Source of the DNA: a virus
Strand: one strand, 5' to 3'
Virus genome (UHGV): UHGV-0306720
DNA: 22,887 nucleotides
A program made the position numbers and the translations under genes. This document shows positions 2,879-17,608 of the stretch, piece by piece. How positions within the stretch are numbered: the first letter of the stretch is position 1; every line of letters begins with the position of its first letter. The notes below the pieces were generated by a model. That model ran no database searches, was not told the DNA's origin, and worked only from the letters and a program-made list of their open reading frames with translations.

Positions 2879-3456
2879 TGCGGGCCTCCTGTCGAATCGC
2901 TGCCACCTTTCACGCCACCGTGTTTATGCGTATGCACTGTGATGCCGTTTGAGGTGAAATTGCCGCCGCTGTGCGTGATATTGCCGCTCATCTTTCCCCC
3001 TTTTGTGACGTCAAGCGTCGCCGTTCTCAGAAGGTCTGTGCATTCCACGACGGGCGTGTCCAGTGTCACGCTGACGGATGCCTGCAGGGTGGCTGTTTTC
3101 ATGCCGCTGGCGCTCAGTGCGCCTGCGGCCGCGTCGTAGCGGAACACCGCGCCATCCGGCGCGCTGACCACGATTTCTTTCAGGCTTTTGCCGGGGGCCG
3201 GACTGGCATCACTCCACAGGCTGCCAATTATCATGGCGGTTTCCGGGTTGCCGCCAATGCAGGCAATTACCACCTGTTCGCCTGGTGATGGCGGCAGCCA
3301 CACATTGAAGGCTCCCGCGCGCGTGGTGTTCCAGCGCAACCAGCCTGTTTCCAGTTCGCCGCTGCGAACGCGCACGCACCAGGATTCCTCATCAACTTCA
3401 GAGATGATCCCGGTGCGGATGATGTTGCTCAGCAGTCGCATGAGTTCTGCGCTCAC
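2875..3456 (-). CDS. V: Baseplate spike/assembly protein gpV-like (193 aa, GTG start)
   Basis: IRTGII, Gly-rich C-terminus and HTHKH motif resemble P2 gpV; position between S and W. Confidence 0.8.
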   Translation of the reverse strand: MSAELMRLLSNIIRTGIISEVDEESWCVRVRSGELETGWLRWNTTRAGAFNVWLPPSPGEQVVIACIGGNPETAMIIGSLWSDASPAPGKSLKEIVVSAPDGAVFRYDAAAGALSASGMKTATLQASVSVTLDTPVVECTDLLRTATLDVTKGGKMSGNITHSGGNFTSNGITVHTHKHGGVKGGSDSTGGPQ

Positions 3457-4088
3457 CGTACAGCCTCCGCAATCCGGCCCAGCACCGTGTTATAAATCAG
3501 GCGTTCATCTGCCTGGCTGATACCCAGCAGCTCACGTACCGGGTAATCGGTGAAAATGCCCGGCGCAACCTGATCGCGCTCACCGAACTGATGAACGCGG
3601 GCAATACGTGCGGCCACGCCGCTGTAACCCACCGTCACACCGGAAGCATCTGCACGGGCTTTCAGGTAGCGGGCGGTGCGCAGTTTTACGAACATGGGGA
3701 CGCGCTTTGTGCTGTCCTGGTTGATGCGCCGGGTGCGTATTTCCAGAAAACGGTCGATGTCATCCCGGTAAAACGTGCGGATATTGTTTTTATCCTCATC
3801 CCACCCGGTAATGGTTCGCCCGTATTTCCCCGTGTCGTGATGCCAGTTTTTCAGCGTGCGTGCTTCGTTATTCCAGATAAAGCGAATGCGTTCCTGTATC
3901 CGGGTTACGCGGCGTCTGCGAGGTGTCCACGCGGTCCCGTCCGGCGCTTTCTGTGACCGGATACGTGCCTGCTGGGCGCGGCGTAAATCCTGTGCCAGCT
4001 TTCTGGCGATGTTATTGATGGCCTGCTGATTCAGGCTGTCGCGGATGGCCTCAAAGGTTTCATCCACACGGGTGAATGCCTTATCCAT
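3453..4088 (-). CDS. S: Tail completion / virion morphogenesis protein gpS-like (ATG at 4088; GTG alternative at 4097)
   Basis: Position between R and V in P2 order; the ORF is longer than P2 S. Confidence 0.6.
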   Translation of the reverse strand: MDKAFTRVDETFEAIRDSLNQQAINNIARKLAQDLRRAQQARIRSQKAPDGTAWTPRRRRVTRIQERIRFIWNNEARTLKNWHHDTGKYGRTITGWDEDKNNIRTFYRDDIDRFLEIRTRRINQDSTKRVPMFVKLRTARYLKARADASGVTVGYSGVAARIARVHQFGERDQVAPGIFTDYPVRELLGISQADERLIYNTVLGRIAEAVR

Positions 4089-12313: not shown

Positions 12314-12770
12314 CGCGCTTCGCTTGTCTGCTGCTTCGCCGGGGCATAAAAAATTTATGCCCCGGCTCTCCAGCTCCTGTATCAGTCAGATAATTTCACG
12401 ACGCTTTCCTGCTGATTGCCATCATCGACAGTCAGACTCTTACGCAATCCCACCGCGTTGACTGCATGTTCTCGCCGTCTCAGTGCGATTTTGACGGCCT
12501 TACCTTTCACCCCATCAAATCAAAAGCCCTCACGTCTTTTTCACGCTCAGCGTGAGAAAGACAGCCATTCTGTTGTGTCGCTGCGACATCGTTCAGGGGA
12601 TGCTATTTACCCCCTGAAACGCGGGCTGTTCCCCCGTCACCTGCGCGCAGAAAAAACGCGTTTTTTTGTGCACGTACGGATCCCTGACGGATCCAGCCAC
12701 CACGCGGGCCGGAAGTACAAAAAGTCGTTCAAAAAAATTGTGCAAACTTGTGCACTATCGTGCAAACAAA
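12314..12770. other. Presumed cos/packaging region (joined cohesive ends); exact cos site not identified
   Basis: Non-coding stretch right after the portal gene where P2 has cos. Perfect 10-bp-arm hairpin at 12341-12363, palindromes at 12534-12562, 12592-12618 and 12649-12668, direct repeats ACGGATCC x2 (12676-12694) and TGTGCA-type repeats (12738-12767). Confidence 0.4.
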
Positions 12771-12792
12771 AAAAGCGCCTTATCGGCGCTTC
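12764..12792 (-). terminator. Rho-independent terminator downstream of the 89-aa ORF
   Basis: AGCGCC-TTATC-GGCGCT hairpin; plus-strand A7 immediately upstream gives a U7 tract after the hairpin on the minus strand. Confidence 0.55.
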
Positions 12793-12799
12793 AAAAGTA

Positions 12800-13069
12800 T
12801 CAATTGTTGCTGTGTATTAATCGCCAACCACGAACATATGCTTCATAGGCATCTCTGTGCCTTACAGTTCCAGCCTGGCTAAACGGAATGTTAGCTAAAA
12901 CTAAATCATTCTGAGCCATAGCGCGTCCTTCAAGCGCATCTTTTATGCCTAGCTCAAAAGCACAGGCAGCGCATTTGTGCCGACCTTCTTGTCCTTGATA
13001 TTCAGGGAGAGACAGAAATGTTGGATTATAACGATGAGGGTTCTTGCAAATACCTGTTTTAGCCCGCAC
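12800..13069 (-). CDS. Hypothetical 89-aa protein with Cys/His cluster (GTG start)
   Basis: ORF in the AT-rich island with its own terminator; motif C-x4-H...H-K-C-A-A-C suggests metal binding. SD-like GAGGT 9 nt before the GTG. No family recognised. Confidence 0.35.
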   Translation of the reverse strand: MRAKTGICKNPHRYNPTFLSLPEYQGQEGRHKCAACAFELGIKDALEGRAMAQNDLVLANIPFSQAGTVRHRDAYEAYVRGWRLIHSNN

Positions 13070-13199
13070 TTTATTTACCTCATAGGAAAAATATGCGTGC
13101 CTTTACAGAGGTGCGTGTAAGCAATAAAATATACGACGCACATTTTGATTTACTTCGGAAGGCACGCATATCAGGTTAAGTGAGTCCGACCGAGTTTTA

Positions 13200-13232
13200 C
13201 GCCCCAATAGTTGCTGCTATTGGGGCGTTTTG
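13200..13232 (+). terminator. Hairpin with 11-bp perfect stem followed by TTTTG
   Basis: CGCCCCAATAG-TTGCTG-CTATTGGGGCG then TTTTG on the plus strand, just downstream of the 28-codon plus-strand ORF. Confidence 0.5.
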
Positions 13233-13433
13233 CATGGACAATGCCGCGCAATTATCTTGTCGCTCACAATGCGAACGATCTTACAAAAAGGCACATTACT
13301 GTCAAGATAATTGATCGTTTTAATCGATAGATAATAGACAATCTATTTGTTTAACAGATCGATTATTGAAGTAAGTGTGCCAAATGGAATGATACTGTCT
13401 CTATAAACGTGAGCATTTTTCGCGCAGATGCTT

Positions 13434-13745
13434 TTACTCAGGAAATAACGCCCGGATATTCCCAGCCATCTGGCTGGTTATCTTAGCCACTGGTGCAGAC
13501 TGTGCTTCAAACTTTTTTGAGCTGATTTGTGTCACAGGTAACATCTCATCATCAGCCCATGCGGCCAGTCGGTAAGCCTCTGCCGGATTCGTCTTCAGAA
13601 GTGCCAGCCCGGCCAGAAAAGCCACGCGTTGGCCGCTTTTGCGGGCTTCTGGTGTAAGGCTGTCCAGCCAAGCGCATGCTTCTCCTTCGTTCTTGACGGC
13701 AGCTGGCTTCAGATAGAAACTTATTCTTCTGGTTGGTGTCGTCAT
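13434..13745 (-). CDS. parR: ParR/StbB-like partition adaptor (103 aa)
   Basis: RRISFYLKPAAVKNEGEACAWLDSLTPEARKSGQRVAFLAGLALL resembles the plasmid R1 ParR N-terminal region as recalled. Begins 4 nt after the parM-like stop with SD AAGGAG. Confidence 0.7.
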   Translation of the reverse strand: MTTPTRRISFYLKPAAVKNEGEACAWLDSLTPEARKSGQRVAFLAGLALLKTNPAEAYRLAAWADDEMLPVTQISSKKFEAQSAPVAKITSQMAGNIRALFPE

Positions 13746-13749
13746 TGGT

Positions 13750-14709
13750 TTACTCCTTGTTCATTGCGTACAGCCCATTAACCAGAGCAAATTGTGGCCC
13801 CCCGTCCGCGATGAAAGTCGCATTAACTCCGCAGGCTTCGCGGATAGCGGGTGCCACAATCTCCGCCCCGCCACCGACAACCATCACCCGCCCGTAACCC
13901 GAAAAAACCGCCAGCGCGCGGATCACGCGTTGTTTCAGTGTTTCTTCCTTTTCACGAATAACCGCCATCAGGCTGGCGTAATGCGCGTCATTGTGGATGT
14001 GCTGGCGCAGCCAGGCTTCATCATGGCGATGTTCGATAATGGTATTGGCGATGTGGTGACTGGTGCGCATACCGTTAGTGGCCATCACCGACAGTACGGC
14101 ATCGGCCATAAGAGAAACGCCTACGTGTGGATCGCAAAACACCTGGCTGATACCTGCCAGTTGCCCCTGAACCTTTGCCACATCCAGCGTGGTTCCGCCC
14201 AAATCCACAATCAACAGGGATTCAAACGGACTCATGTCAGCCAGTGCCTTAAAGCCAGCCGGAATGGATTCAGGCATAACCCGTACGTTACGGATAGTGA
14301 ATGCTTCGCCGTTCTGGTACTCCACCGGGCGCATGACGTTCGCTTTTTTGCGGTTGATGTTGGCCATGTCCGGCTGTGCGTTTGTATCGAAATACTCGCT
14401 CAGTGGCAGGGTGACAACCACATCCACTTCCTGTGGTGTGATGCCTGATTTGACCAGCGCGTGATGAATGGCAATTACATTCACATCGCTGTACTGGTAT
14501 TGCGTGTCGGTCGTCTGGACAAAGCGATCGCTGACCGGATCAAAACCATAGCGCACGCCATCAAGCATGTAGTTCGCGGGCTGCGTGCCACCGAATGGCG
14601 CAGACCATTCCGACTTGAAGCTGTTCGGGCTGATGGCGTTGCGGCGTTCGCCGTTCTCAGTCCATGCCAGCTTGATGTTGGTGGAGCCGTCGTCGATACA
14701 AATTTTCAT
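13750..14709 (-). CDS. parM: Actin-like segregation ATPase, ParM/StbA family (319 aa)
   Basis: MKICIDDGSTNIKLAW, YSDVNVIAIHHAL, VMPESIPAG, LIVDLGGTTLDV and VMVVGGGAEI are the actin-fold motifs and resemble plasmid R1 ParM/StbA along the whole length, as recalled. Confidence 0.85.
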   Translation of the reverse strand: MKICIDDGSTNIKLAWTENGERRNAISPNSFKSEWSAPFGGTQPANYMLDGVRYGFDPVSDRFVQTTDTQYQYSDVNVIAIHHALVKSGITPQEVDVVVTLPLSEYFDTNAQPDMANINRKKANVMRPVEYQNGEAFTIRNVRVMPESIPAGFKALADMSPFESLLIVDLGGTTLDVAKVQGQLAGISQVFCDPHVGVSLMADAVLSVMATNGMRTSHHIANTIIEHRHDEAWLRQHIHNDAHYASLMAVIREKEETLKQRVIRALAVFSGYGRVMVVGGGAEIVAPAIREACGVNATFIADGGPQFALVNGLYAMNKE

Positions 14710-14744
14710 GTCGCTTTTCCTTATGTTGATTAATTAATCGGTTA

Positions 14745-14852
14745 CAGGATTTTTAAATCCCGCTTTTGCCTGTTTTGTGCGCGCTTCATATATCGCGGCG
14801 CGTTTTTTGCTCATTTACGGGATTTGTGAGTCCCGTTTCTGTCTGTTTTTTG
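14745..14852. repeat. Two ~35-bp imperfect direct repeats (27/35 identical), each with an internal dyad, 73 bp apart
   Basis: CAGGATTTTTAAATCCCGCTTTTGCCTGTTTTGTG (14745-14779) versus CGGGATTTGTGAGTCCCGTTTCTGTCTGTTTTTTG (14818-14852). The first lies between the A stop and the parM start; the second lies within the last codons of A. Confidence 0.6.
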
Positions 14853-17608
14853 TTTCCACTGGTCAGGCCACCCCGCAGCAGGTCTGCTTTGCGGCTGGCG
14901 CGTTCAGTGGTTTCACTGATTCTCTGTGCGTGCTCTGCGTCGCGGATGGCGCGCAGCATGTCAGAAAGCACGGTAACGGGTGTTTTCATGGTGTTCTGGT
15001 CCTGCTGAAGTGTGGATGCCAGGCGTGCGGCGGCTTCAGGGTCTGATGCCCCCAGCTGTGCCAGATAGCTGGCGACCGGGTTATGGCGGATCTCCGTGCT
15101 GCTTACGCCATGATTACGGCTCAGGCGCTGCCAGAGCTGCGTGATTCGGCTGTCCGGGCGGGTATCCGGTTTGCGTACAATTTCAAATCCCTGCGGTGCA
15201 ATGATGCTGCCGTCAACGTACAGACTGCCGCCCCGTAACAGGTGCTGCATCTGTTGTTCACCGATATGCAGGCCGAGAGATTCAGCAGACTCCCGCCATT
15301 CTTTAGCGAGTAATTCGTGGTTATCAGGCAAAGGCCGCTGCTGTTTGCGGCTCTGTGTCCAGCTCTGCATTTCATCACTGCTGTTTTTTGCCTGTTTGTC
15401 ACGAAGCGAACGCATCAGCGCCCGGCGTTCGTGCCGTTTCAGTGAGCGCATCCATTCGTTCACGTCAACGCCGTCAGGAAGCTGCGGCCACGGTGCTGGC
15501 CGTTCTTCCGGCTGTTCTGTCCCGTTGTTGTCCGTTTCCTGTACACGGGGACAGTTATTGCCACGAGTCCAAGGGGCGGCAGGGCCGCCCTGAAGGTCAA
15601 AACCATTTTCGCGGGCGCTGTCTTCCGCTTCCGGTTTGCGTCTTACCAGCTTCCAGTTATCCGGATGCGTGCACACACGGGAGGATTCCCCGATGAGTGG
15701 CGACCAGATCCCGTAAATCTGTACGCTCTGTTCGCCGTAATCGTTCAGCTCATCTGCGAGGTCGTAGGCGGTGCGAATCAGGTAGTCTTTGCGTGGAACA
15801 AGTACGCCGCCCTGTTTCTCTATGTAGGTGGCAAAACATCCGGCATCAGCGGCAGCAAGAACCGCATCCATTGCGTCATCCTTCAGCCGTTGCGGGCCTT
15901 CGGGGTTGCGTGCCATCTGGCTGGCAAGGCGACGCAGTTCACGCCACACCTGACGGGAGGGGATACCAAAGAACTGGAACTGGCGGACCCGGTGAAGGCG
16001 CGCCCAGCCGATGGCGCGTTCCACGCTCTCGGCCATTGATTTTCCGGTTTCGTGGTCAACGCGTGGTTTGCCCGTTTTCGGGTCGATGCCATCCACGGCG
16101 CGGCTGTCCAGGTTCTTTCCGATGTAGGTGGCGATGTAGCTGGTTGGCGTGCCTTTTGAGCCGTCGACATACTCCACCTTAAAGCGCGGAGTAATATCAT
16201 TGCCCAGCTCGTGGCGGTCTTCCTGAATGGCAATATCGCGGGTGATGGCCACGATGCTGTCGATTTCTTCCGGATGAGCAAAGACCATCATATGCCAGTG
16301 CACGGTGCCGTCATGGTGAGGCTCCACCGTGCGGATGCCATACCAGCGCAGGCCGTCGCGGTTCAGTTTCTTGCGGACCGCCGCAAAAAACGTGTTAACC
16401 AGGTAATCGCTGGAGTCGCGCATGGTGGCCCCGTTCCATTTGGGGTTCGGATGACCGTTCTCCGTTGTTGCGTGGTATTTTGACGGGCAGGTGACAGTCA
16501 GAAACACCGCTCTGTCGCCACGGGCTTCGGCCAGAAGTTCCAGTCCCTTCATGGTGGCCATCATTTCTGCCTTACGGTGAACCGGGTTACTTACTCCCGC
16601 GTAATACACTGTCTCGAGATCAATCGTGAAGCCGTCTTCGTTTTCCAGTTCGAAGCTCTTCAGGAAGTCGCGGGTTTTCTCGCGCTGTGCGCGAAACTCG
16701 CTTAACGCGTCCTGGCTCAGATAGGGTGATGTTTTTCTGGAAACCAGACAGGCGGCGCGGAGTTGTTCTTCTCTCCACTCGCAACGTAACAGCCACAGTT
16801 TGCGTTTCCACCATTCCGCACAGGTCAGGCGAAGGATTGCGCCCGGCAGCAGCTCCGTGTCCGGTTCGTTCCTCCGGTCTTTGTCTGTTGTCAGTGCGTC
16901 ATAATGTGGAGGCATGGCGTGCAGGTGTAACGCCATGCGGGCCAGCATCTGATACGCCTTCAGCGTTACATCCATGGTCAGTTCGCCATCAGTCGCGCCA
17001 AAGCCATCGCAGAGTTTTTCGAAGGTGCTGCTGAACATCGCCGCCGTCATGGTGGCCAGCGTCTGTATCTGGTGCTTGTTGAGCTGCGGCAGGTAAAGCA
17101 AATCATCCAGGCGTTCGCGTCCGGCAAGGGAGCGATAACCCGGTGTCAGCCAGCGGTGGTCGGTGCGGTCCAGACGTTCGAATATTTTGCGCAGGGTTCC
17201 GCGCGCGTAGCGTTCAGCCTGCCAGCTCTTTTTGCCTTTCCGGCGATCGACTTCCTGTTTTTTGCGCAGGAAGGAGAGGTGGCGAATAAGCGGATCGCGC
17301 AGATAGGACGGCAGCAGGCGCAGCGAGGCCATGGCTTCATCCACCGCGCCGCGTGCCTGTTTTCTGGCGTCTCCTGCCAGTGTGATGGTTTTGTCCTGTT
17401 TTTCCTGTGCATCCAGGCTTTTATTAATCAGGTTGCCCAGCGGCGTGGCGGAGAACGCCGCATCAGCCATTTCCTGGCGGCGCTCGTTCTCTGCCCGGTA
17501 GGCATCCAGCCAGGAGGAAAGCGCAGATTCAGGAACGGGGATCCCCGTTCCTTCACGTCCCACTGCGTGGCGCGGTTGTTGCCAGTCCCTGATGTACTCT
17601 GCCGTCAT
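14786..17608 (-). CDS. A: Replication initiation endonuclease gpA-like (HUH rolling-circle initiator), 940 aa
   Basis: HUH motif in VHWHMMVFAHPEE; large last gene of the early operon as in P2; ATG confirmed. Confidence 0.8.
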   Translation of the reverse strand: MTAEYIRDWQQPRHAVGREGTGIPVPESALSSWLDAYRAENERRQEMADAAFSATPLGNLINKSLDAQEKQDKTITLAGDARKQARGAVDEAMASLRLLPSYLRDPLIRHLSFLRKKQEVDRRKGKKSWQAERYARGTLRKIFERLDRTDHRWLTPGYRSLAGRERLDDLLYLPQLNKHQIQTLATMTAAMFSSTFEKLCDGFGATDGELTMDVTLKAYQMLARMALHLHAMPPHYDALTTDKDRRNEPDTELLPGAILRLTCAEWWKRKLWLLRCEWREEQLRAACLVSRKTSPYLSQDALSEFRAQREKTRDFLKSFELENEDGFTIDLETVYYAGVSNPVHRKAEMMATMKGLELLAEARGDRAVFLTVTCPSKYHATTENGHPNPKWNGATMRDSSDYLVNTFFAAVRKKLNRDGLRWYGIRTVEPHHDGTVHWHMMVFAHPEEIDSIVAITRDIAIQEDRHELGNDITPRFKVEYVDGSKGTPTSYIATYIGKNLDSRAVDGIDPKTGKPRVDHETGKSMAESVERAIGWARLHRVRQFQFFGIPSRQVWRELRRLASQMARNPEGPQRLKDDAMDAVLAAADAGCFATYIEKQGGVLVPRKDYLIRTAYDLADELNDYGEQSVQIYGIWSPLIGESSRVCTHPDNWKLVRRKPEAEDSARENGFDLQGGPAAPWTRGNNCPRVQETDNNGTEQPEERPAPWPQLPDGVDVNEWMRSLKRHERRALMRSLRDKQAKNSSDEMQSWTQSRKQQRPLPDNHELLAKEWRESAESLGLHIGEQQMQHLLRGGSLYVDGSIIAPQGFEIVRKPDTRPDSRITQLWQRLSRNHGVSSTEIRHNPVASYLAQLGASDPEAAARLASTLQQDQNTMKTPVTVLSDMLRAIRDAEHAQRISETTERASRKADLLRGGLTSGNKKQTETGLTNPVNEQKTRRDI

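Follow-up and report, generated by a model that had tools for sequence, protein, structure and literature searches.

The window, which is the whole stretch of 22,887 nt that was analysed, comes from an integrated P88-like prophage (Xuanwuvirus, P2-like) of E. coli. Its gene set was of the P2 type and included capsid, scaffold, terminase, portal, a Cox-like protein, an HTH repressor, and a tyrosine integrase. The region 13300–15100 showed 94–97% identity to Escherichia phage P88 and other Xuanwuvirus records and was present in 1371 of 5426 complete E. coli genomes (about a quarter). Among the E. coli placements of the prophage, 1540 of 1542 were chromosomal, and over the junction 14600–14950 many O157:H7 chromosomes were 100% identical. 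A literature search (P88, Xuanwuvirus, P2-like parM) found no study of the present locus. Gene A, parM, and parR all lie on the minus strand, with gaps of 76 bp between A and parM and 4 bp between parM and parR. The A protein was 30% identical to P2 A, and the ParR family profile matched the solved pB171 ParR structure (2JD3, E = 1.6e-14). The features of the locus are as follows.

14786–17608, minus strand: gene A, P2-type replication endonuclease of 940 aa (Pfam Phage_GPA, E = 1.8e-130).
14788–14786, minus strand: stop codon TGA of A, in the loop of the GC hairpin.
13750–14709, minus strand: parM, actin-like ATPase of 319 aa (Pfam StbA_N, E = 1.8e-82; ParM C-terminal domain, E = 1.2e-68; PHROG 691).
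13434–13745, minus strand: parR, ribbon-helix-helix adaptor of 103 aa (Pfam PF10784, Plasmid_stab_B, E = 9.8e-24).
14742–14855, minus strand: the whole putative parC-like region; homology to other cassette contexts starts at about 14850–14855.
14815–14852, minus strand: repeat copy 1, within the last 22 codons of A, conserved in the Hafnia locus L006.
14742–14779, minus strand: repeat copy 2, inside the 76-bp gap between A and parM.
14817–14836, no strand: dyad 1, population consensus ACGGGATT-CACA-AATCCCGT, with a GGG-N10-CCC core at 14819–14834.
14744–14763, no strand: dyad 2, population consensus ACGGGATT-TCAG-AATCCCGT, with its core at 14746–14761.
14780–14808, no strand: GC-rich palindromic spacer with arms CGCGC (14780–14784) and GCGCG (14798–14802), a 13-nt loop holding the A stop, and T6 on the plus strand (14803–14808).
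14718–14722, minus strand: parM Shine-Dalgarno sequence AAGGA, with CATAAGGA after the last repeat, as in R1.

The original prediction described two 35-bp elements of 77% identity lying 73 bp apart, one in the gap before parM and the other in the last codons of A. The repeat finder returned the same pair as 38-nt direct repeats at 14742–14779 and 14815–14852, 79% identical (30/38) with a start-to-start distance of 73, and the gene layout agreed with the placement. In 500 dinucleotide-preserving shuffles of 14500–15100 the best 38-nt direct repeat reached at most 25/38, and none of the shuffles reached 30/38. The pair was the second-best 38-nt direct repeat of the whole window. The best one (243–280 and 375–412, 33/38, spacing 132) looks like a repeat within a coding region close to the left end. 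A simple 73-bp tandem duplication was rejected as the origin of the pair, as the 35 bp past copy 2 are unlike the 35 bp past copy 1.

Each 38-nt unit is a direct repeat of the other, and the conserved core of each is a palindrome made of two inverted half-sites. The internal dyads that had been predicted were confirmed, and the dyad pattern ACRGGATTTNTRARTCCCG occurred at just these two places in 22.9 kb, giving four strand-wise matches where 0.08 were expected. The order of elements, read along the parM sense strand, was A-rich units, dyad 1, an A-rich unit, the GC-rich spacer, further A-rich units, and dyad 2. The repeats end 33 bp 5' of the parM ATG, and AACATAAGGA stands after the last repeat unit. 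The GC hairpin followed by T6 across the A stop was found on the plus strand as described. The T-rich tails of the repeats were also present, but the description had missed the orientation of the genes, which are encoded by the minus strand. Relative to these genes both the tails and the T6 are antisense, and in the mRNA they become A-runs 5' of the hairpins.

Related loci were collected from IMG/VR and from genomes. The IMG/VR scan with the ParM alignment gave 80 loci, which were all 98–99% identical and informative for population variation alone, and the ParR-alignment scan of species-representative genomes gave three loci. In all, 85 related loci were reduced to 60 distinct 281-nt haplotypes, of which 49 remained distinct over the 128-nt core. 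In these 49 haplotypes both repeat cores had the form ACGGGATT-N4-AATCCCGT, with perfect 8-bp arms in the consensus. The GGGA and TCCC cores were essentially invariant, and the central four bases varied (CACA, CACG, or CATG in dyad 1; TAAA, TCAG, or TGAA in dyad 2). Variation within the region was greatest in the GC hairpin that separates the repeats. The window itself carries the minor allele C at 14830 in dyad 1 and minority or near-minority alleles at 14746 (T), 14752, 14754, and 14763 in dyad 2; the C at 14830 and the T at 14746 weaken their respective dyads. In IMG/VR, pairs of palindromes occurred exclusively next to parM, and single palindrome matches away from parM were about as numerous as chance would give by our own estimate.

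One IMG/VR locus (L023, IMGVR_UViG_2657245439_000011, 3440–3470) lacked exactly 73 bp and showed one hybrid repeat, in which the head of copy 1 is joined to dyad 2. This deletion removes the normal A stop codon, and it is either a real variant or an assembly artefact.

The repeats accompanied parM–parR in three different upstream contexts. In the Hafnia locus L006, the adjacent upstream A coding sequence was about half identical to that of the window, and the identity rose to about 83–85% from position 14853 or so through both repeats. The A stop codon TGA of L006 falls in the dyad 1 loop, so half of repeat 1 is non-coding there. In the IMG/VR locus L071 (2957–3424), a shorter A (871 aa) was followed by a different 155-aa ORF, which continues across repeat 1 and ends at the same TGA; homology to the window set in exactly where repeat 1 starts. 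L071 marks the left boundary of the parMR cassette, at about 14850. At the other end, 3' homology in most phages stopped at the parR stop codon. The DNA homology of some phages breaks earlier, about 18 codons into parR, near 13691. The A C-terminal peptide encoded by repeat 1 was not conserved, and the repeats were the only conserved non-coding DNA of the parM–parR cassette. The conservation of the repeats exceeds coding constraint, and sequence comparison assigns them to the parMR cassette and not to gene A. A parC located 3' of parR was also considered and rejected, as no repeats were present there and that DNA was unconserved between cassettes.

More distant ParM homologues (54–62% identity) were found between A and the portal gene in Plesiomonas (L094), a second Hafnia locus (L095), Serratia (L097), and Enterobacter (L098). 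L094 and L095 had ParM proteins 62% identical to that of the window and ParR strands TRRISFYLNP and TRRVSFYLKP. In L094 the units GCGGGACAACAAAAACCCG and GCGGGACAACACTAACCCA were 72 bp apart, and the first of them lay in the last codons of A. In L095 the units GGGATTGAGGAAACCC and GGGTTCATTAAATCCC were 73 bp apart and overlapped the end of an unrelated 167-aa ORF. The pattern GGG-N10-CCC, with an A-rich 3' half, fitted all units of L094, L095, L006, and L009, copy 1 of the window, and the consensus form of copy 2. Relative to the parM ATG, one unit of each pair started within −124 to −131 and the other within −51 to −59; elsewhere in these loci the pattern occurred at 0.1–0.9 per kb. The DNA between the units was unrelated across the three lineages. 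The conserved spacing of seven helical turns, together with the fixed distance from parM, indicates a protein–DNA assembly and not an RNA hairpin or a terminator.

The motif ATTAATCAA, at 14724–14734 of the window, lies just 5' of the parM Shine-Dalgarno sequence, and its counterpart in L094 and L095 lies at about −30 to −20 from the parM ATG. It was conserved in the three lineages despite differing surroundings, and it could be a weak −10 region.

The layout of the repeats changed together with the ParR N-terminal strand. The three lineages with the GGG-N10-CCC pair all encoded a strand of the form TRR[IV]SFYL, and the putative recognition strand of the window ParR is TRRISFYLKP. L097 and L098 (NRKISFYL) and L221 (LRKVSFYL) showed no GGG-N10-CCC pair at 72–73 bp and had a different layout made of 11-bp iterons of the type GAAATGGGAAC. 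L221 carried about eight such direct iterons, followed by inverted copies past a GC-rich palindrome. As in the window, the cassettes with these iteron arrays lie between A and the portal gene, encode a ParR of the same family, and have a GC-rich palindrome that splits the repeat groups. They differ from it in their repeats, with as many as about eight 11-bp iterons in direct order and further inverted copies, and in a ParR strand of NRK or LRK type instead of TRR. The iteron GAAATGGGAAC is similar to the E. coli arm taken together with the bases before it (GAAACGGGAYT). Within the E. coli group, ParR alleles fell to 55% identity in phages otherwise 95–97% identical, with all of the variation in the linker that joins the DNA-binding domain to the ParM-binding C-terminal tip; both the N-terminal domain and the tip itself (NIRALFPE) were conserved. 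Such linker-only variation would fit one common DNA site and one common ParM.

GC-rich palindromes of unrelated sequence were also seen between the repeat groups of L097 (4395–4425), L098 (4403–4430), and L221 (about −100 to −75 from the parM ATG). Their counterpart in the window is the spacer at 14780–14802, and the position recurs without sequence conservation.

For comparison, the R1 parM–parR region was retrieved, and the R1 ParR sequence matched it at 100%. Read along the parM sense strand, R1 parC is a series of A/C-rich iterons of 11 bp that close with CCC (AAACAAAACCC and AAAAACAACCC are two examples), the last of which stands directly next to CATAAGGAG. The promoter lies between two groups of these iterons; the DNA of R1 parC shows strong curvature, and its complex with ParR is U-shaped (PMC2241845). 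Like R1 parC, the phage region is directly 5' of parM in a parM–parR operon and has two repeat groups flanking a non-repeated core. The two ParR proteins are of the same Pfam family, with 34% identity over the N-terminal 56 residues. The phage region also shares the A/C-rich parM sense strand, half-sites AAWCCC, units ending in CCC, 10.5-bp A-tract phasing, and a last unit abutting CATAAGGA. The half-sites resemble the R1 iteron core, a likeness over short, low-complexity sequence. A-tract periodicity at 10.5 bp over 14742–14855 had a power of 1.01, which was the maximum of the window and was matched by 2 of 1000 shuffles; R1 parC gave 1.22. The same periodicity analysis showed no A-tract phasing in L094 or L095.

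The phage region also differs from R1. R1 parC is built of ten 11-bp iterons in direct orientation, five on each side of a 39-bp promoter core, whereas the phage has two 38-bp units with 20-bp palindromes around a 22-bp GC-rich palindromic spacer that holds the A stop. One phage repeat lies inside coding sequence, and the phage region has no promoter above background (the R1 promoter scored 10.6). A second relative is the par1 site of pB171, whose ParR is reported to use just two repeats 5' of parM (PMC9426499). The phage shares with it a homologous ParR, by the profile match to 2JD3, and the number of repeats; the pB171 repeats are described as 10-bp direct repeats, whereas the phage cores are palindromes 73 bp apart. 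The phage layout differs from characterised parC sites in its two palindromic cores 73 bp apart, one of them in coding sequence, and in having no evident promoter.

Taken together, the two repeats and the flanking phased A-rich units (about 14742–14855) probably form a parC-like centromere or operator to which ParR would bind and whose layout of two palindromes is unusual; we assign this reading a probability of about 0.7. The suggestion that the repeats are candidate ParR sites is favoured by their co-inheritance with parM–parR, the maintained spacing and distance to parM, the change of layout with the ParR strand, and the A-tract phasing. We infer ParR binding of the repeats from their position and co-inheritance, and we likewise infer the ParR–DNA stoichiometry, the DNA bending, and any effects on transcription or DNA movement. 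In the proposed mechanism, ribbon-helix-helix ParR dimers would bind the half-sites (A)AATCCCG, and each 20-bp palindrome ACGGGATT-N4-AATCCCGT, being two inverted half-sites, would take up a dimer of dimers. As 73 bp corresponds to seven helical turns, both palindromes would face the same side of the DNA, and the DNA between them may be curved by the helically phased A-tracts. The ParR–DNA complex would then cap ParM filaments, so that the phage DNA becomes attached to the filaments. If a weak promoter with its −35 in the dyad 2 spacer is used, the ParR complex might also repress it. Even if the region proves to be an ordinary parC, the logic of its annotation is corrected: the 3' end of A is then just the preceding ORF continuing into a cassette that was inserted, and the hairpins that resemble terminators are on the wrong strand.

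A role of the structures in transcription was weighed in two forms. The prediction that a terminator or antiterminator controls readthrough from A into parMR did not hold. The three structures of a hairpin with a T-run are antisense to the genes, with T-runs on the plus strand only, and the T-runs are absent in L094 and L095. A scan of the minus strand over 14709–14860 found no terminator-like site between A and parM, and the stems showed no compensatory changes; the repeats are not transcription terminators for gene A. The other form is that the hairpins are antisense-strand intrinsic terminators or insulators, which would stop plus-strand transcription (from the cargo region, or late P–Q operon readthrough across cos) before it reaches gene A. 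The T-rich run after each hairpin on the plus strand is what such a function would leave, the scan listed 14817–14836 as terminator-like on that strand, the plus-strand RNA fold had a z of −3.6, and a plus-strand promoter-like site was present at 13102–13130. However, promoter-like sites were at chance level (2 found against 2.1 expected), and the stems carried no compensatory change in the 49 haplotypes. The equivalent units of L094 and L095 persist with unchanged spacing and position although the antisense T-run is missing, and in L094 the pairing is confined to GGG/CCC, a stem of 3–4 bp that is too weak for a terminator. Terminators require neither a fixed spacing of 72–73 bp nor a fixed distance to the parM ATG. 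We regard this explanation as very unlikely.

Much the same evidence bears on the sense-strand RNA, where local hairpins or pairing of dyad 1 with dyad 2 might control parM translation, A translation termination, or the processing and stability of the A–parM mRNA. The sense RNA fold (z = −3.0) did pair dyad 1 with dyad 2 at minimum energy, several one-sided changes yielded G–U pairs on the sense strand, and the A stop lies in a hairpin loop in both E. coli and the Hafnia locus L006. Since pairing of this kind is open to any two palindromes, the long-range fold is uninformative, and folding z-scores of this size are expected of two palindromes. None of the 21 pairs had changes on both sides in the 49 haplotypes, the paired fraction equalled that of the shuffle control, and in L094 and L095 the pairing beyond GGG/CCC was lost while the spacing was kept. 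An RNA function has little likelihood on this evidence. A further alternative, which we judge about as improbable, gives the palindromes a different protein partner in place of ParR, such as a host factor or some other phage regulator, or a part in replication, for example through lagging-strand priming or as accessory sites for protein A. Perfect 20-bp palindromes are typical of many dimeric regulators, and the sites overlap the 3' end of a replication gene. All characterised ParR proteins bind direct repeats (PMC9426499), and the two palindromic cores of the phage count against the reading as ParR sites on this point. Against another protein, the sites move with parM–parR into backgrounds of differing A and upstream genes, and the conserved cassette encodes no DNA-binding protein besides ParR. 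The homologue of the P2 nick site (GCGCCTCGG/AGTCCTGTCAATAACTG, NC_001895 29892) is about 700 bp away, at about 15551–15585 inside A.

The repeats were also considered as a P2-type ori with the A nick site, and this identity was rejected on the position of that homologue, CCCCTTGGACTCGTGGCAATAACTG, on the minus strand about 700 bp upstream. The P2 sequence around the annotated nick is GCGCCTCGGAGTCCTGTCAATAACTG, and from the likeness of the two, 15551–15585 of the window is probably the phage ori. A LexA box, the P2 late-promoter motif TGT-N12-ACA, a Cox box, and the IHF consensus were compared by eye, and none of them fitted.

Returning to the putative centromere, its second expected role would be that of an operator. 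The claim that copy 2 overlaps an autoregulated parM promoter found no support in the promoter scans. The consensus scan for sigma-70 gave no site in the A–parM gap. In the weight-matrix scan the window scored 5.5 (TTTAAA-17-ATTAAT) and the majority haplotype 2.4, compared with a random-tile median of 4.9 and 10.6 for the known R1 promoter. No promoter rose above background in these scans, which thus lend no support to an operator role of the kind that parC sites typically have. The weak promoter candidates of the window, L006, and L095 always had their −35 in the site 2 spacer, so repression by occlusion is possible. As there is no sense-strand terminator after A, co-transcription of parMR with the early operon is the simplest reading.

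ParMRC is the textbook machine for plasmid segregation. The present prophage has an integrase and 1540 of its 1542 placements were chromosomal, which leaves a centromere without an obvious maintenance role and counts against the centromere reading. The closest functional precedent for ParMRC in an integrating prophage is AlpA/AlpC/alpS of the C. glutamicum prophage CGP3, a system that the phage requires to replicate its DNA efficiently once induced (PMC4446434); the P88-like system is known from sequence alone. In both cases an integrated prophage encodes an actin-like filament protein together with an adaptor that binds DNA, and repeated sites for the adaptor lie 5' of the operon. In CGP3 the adaptor gene comes first, the proteins are unrelated at the family level, alpS consists of 24 short TTAAnnG repeats, and the host is Gram-positive. 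By this analogy, a tentative proposal is that the E. coli P2-like prophage carries a complete, conserved ParMRC, its centromere reduced to a pair of palindromic ParR sites separated by seven turns of curved DNA, that acts not in prophage inheritance but on excised or replicating circles. There it might position or separate them during lytic growth or as a transient episome, as AlpAC does for CGP3, or it might interfere with resident plasmids. We consider this proposal as a whole possible, with the odds against it. The cis site of about 115 bp is a small, concrete target for asking whether a phage-borne ParMRC moves phage DNA, and it opens the further questions of how ParR recognises palindromic versus direct repeats and how few sites a type II centromere needs.

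One complete P88-like genome with integrase, parM, and parR (L220, NZ_CP148288.1, 34461 bp) was deposited as a circular non-mobilizable 'plasmid' of E. coli. Its circular record shows that an episomal circular form was abundant enough for assembly.

The cargo gene 3' of parR, in 12800–13305 on the minus strand, is an 89-aa ORF of PHROG 3941 (unknown function). A reading of parMR as a defence system in a P2 cargo hotspot was rejected, as PADLOC gave no match for ParM, ParR, or this 89-aa neighbour. The 89-aa ORF has its own near-consensus promoter, TTGACA-16-TAAGAT, at 13305–13278, and a strong hairpin with a T-run lies past it, at about 12770–12795.
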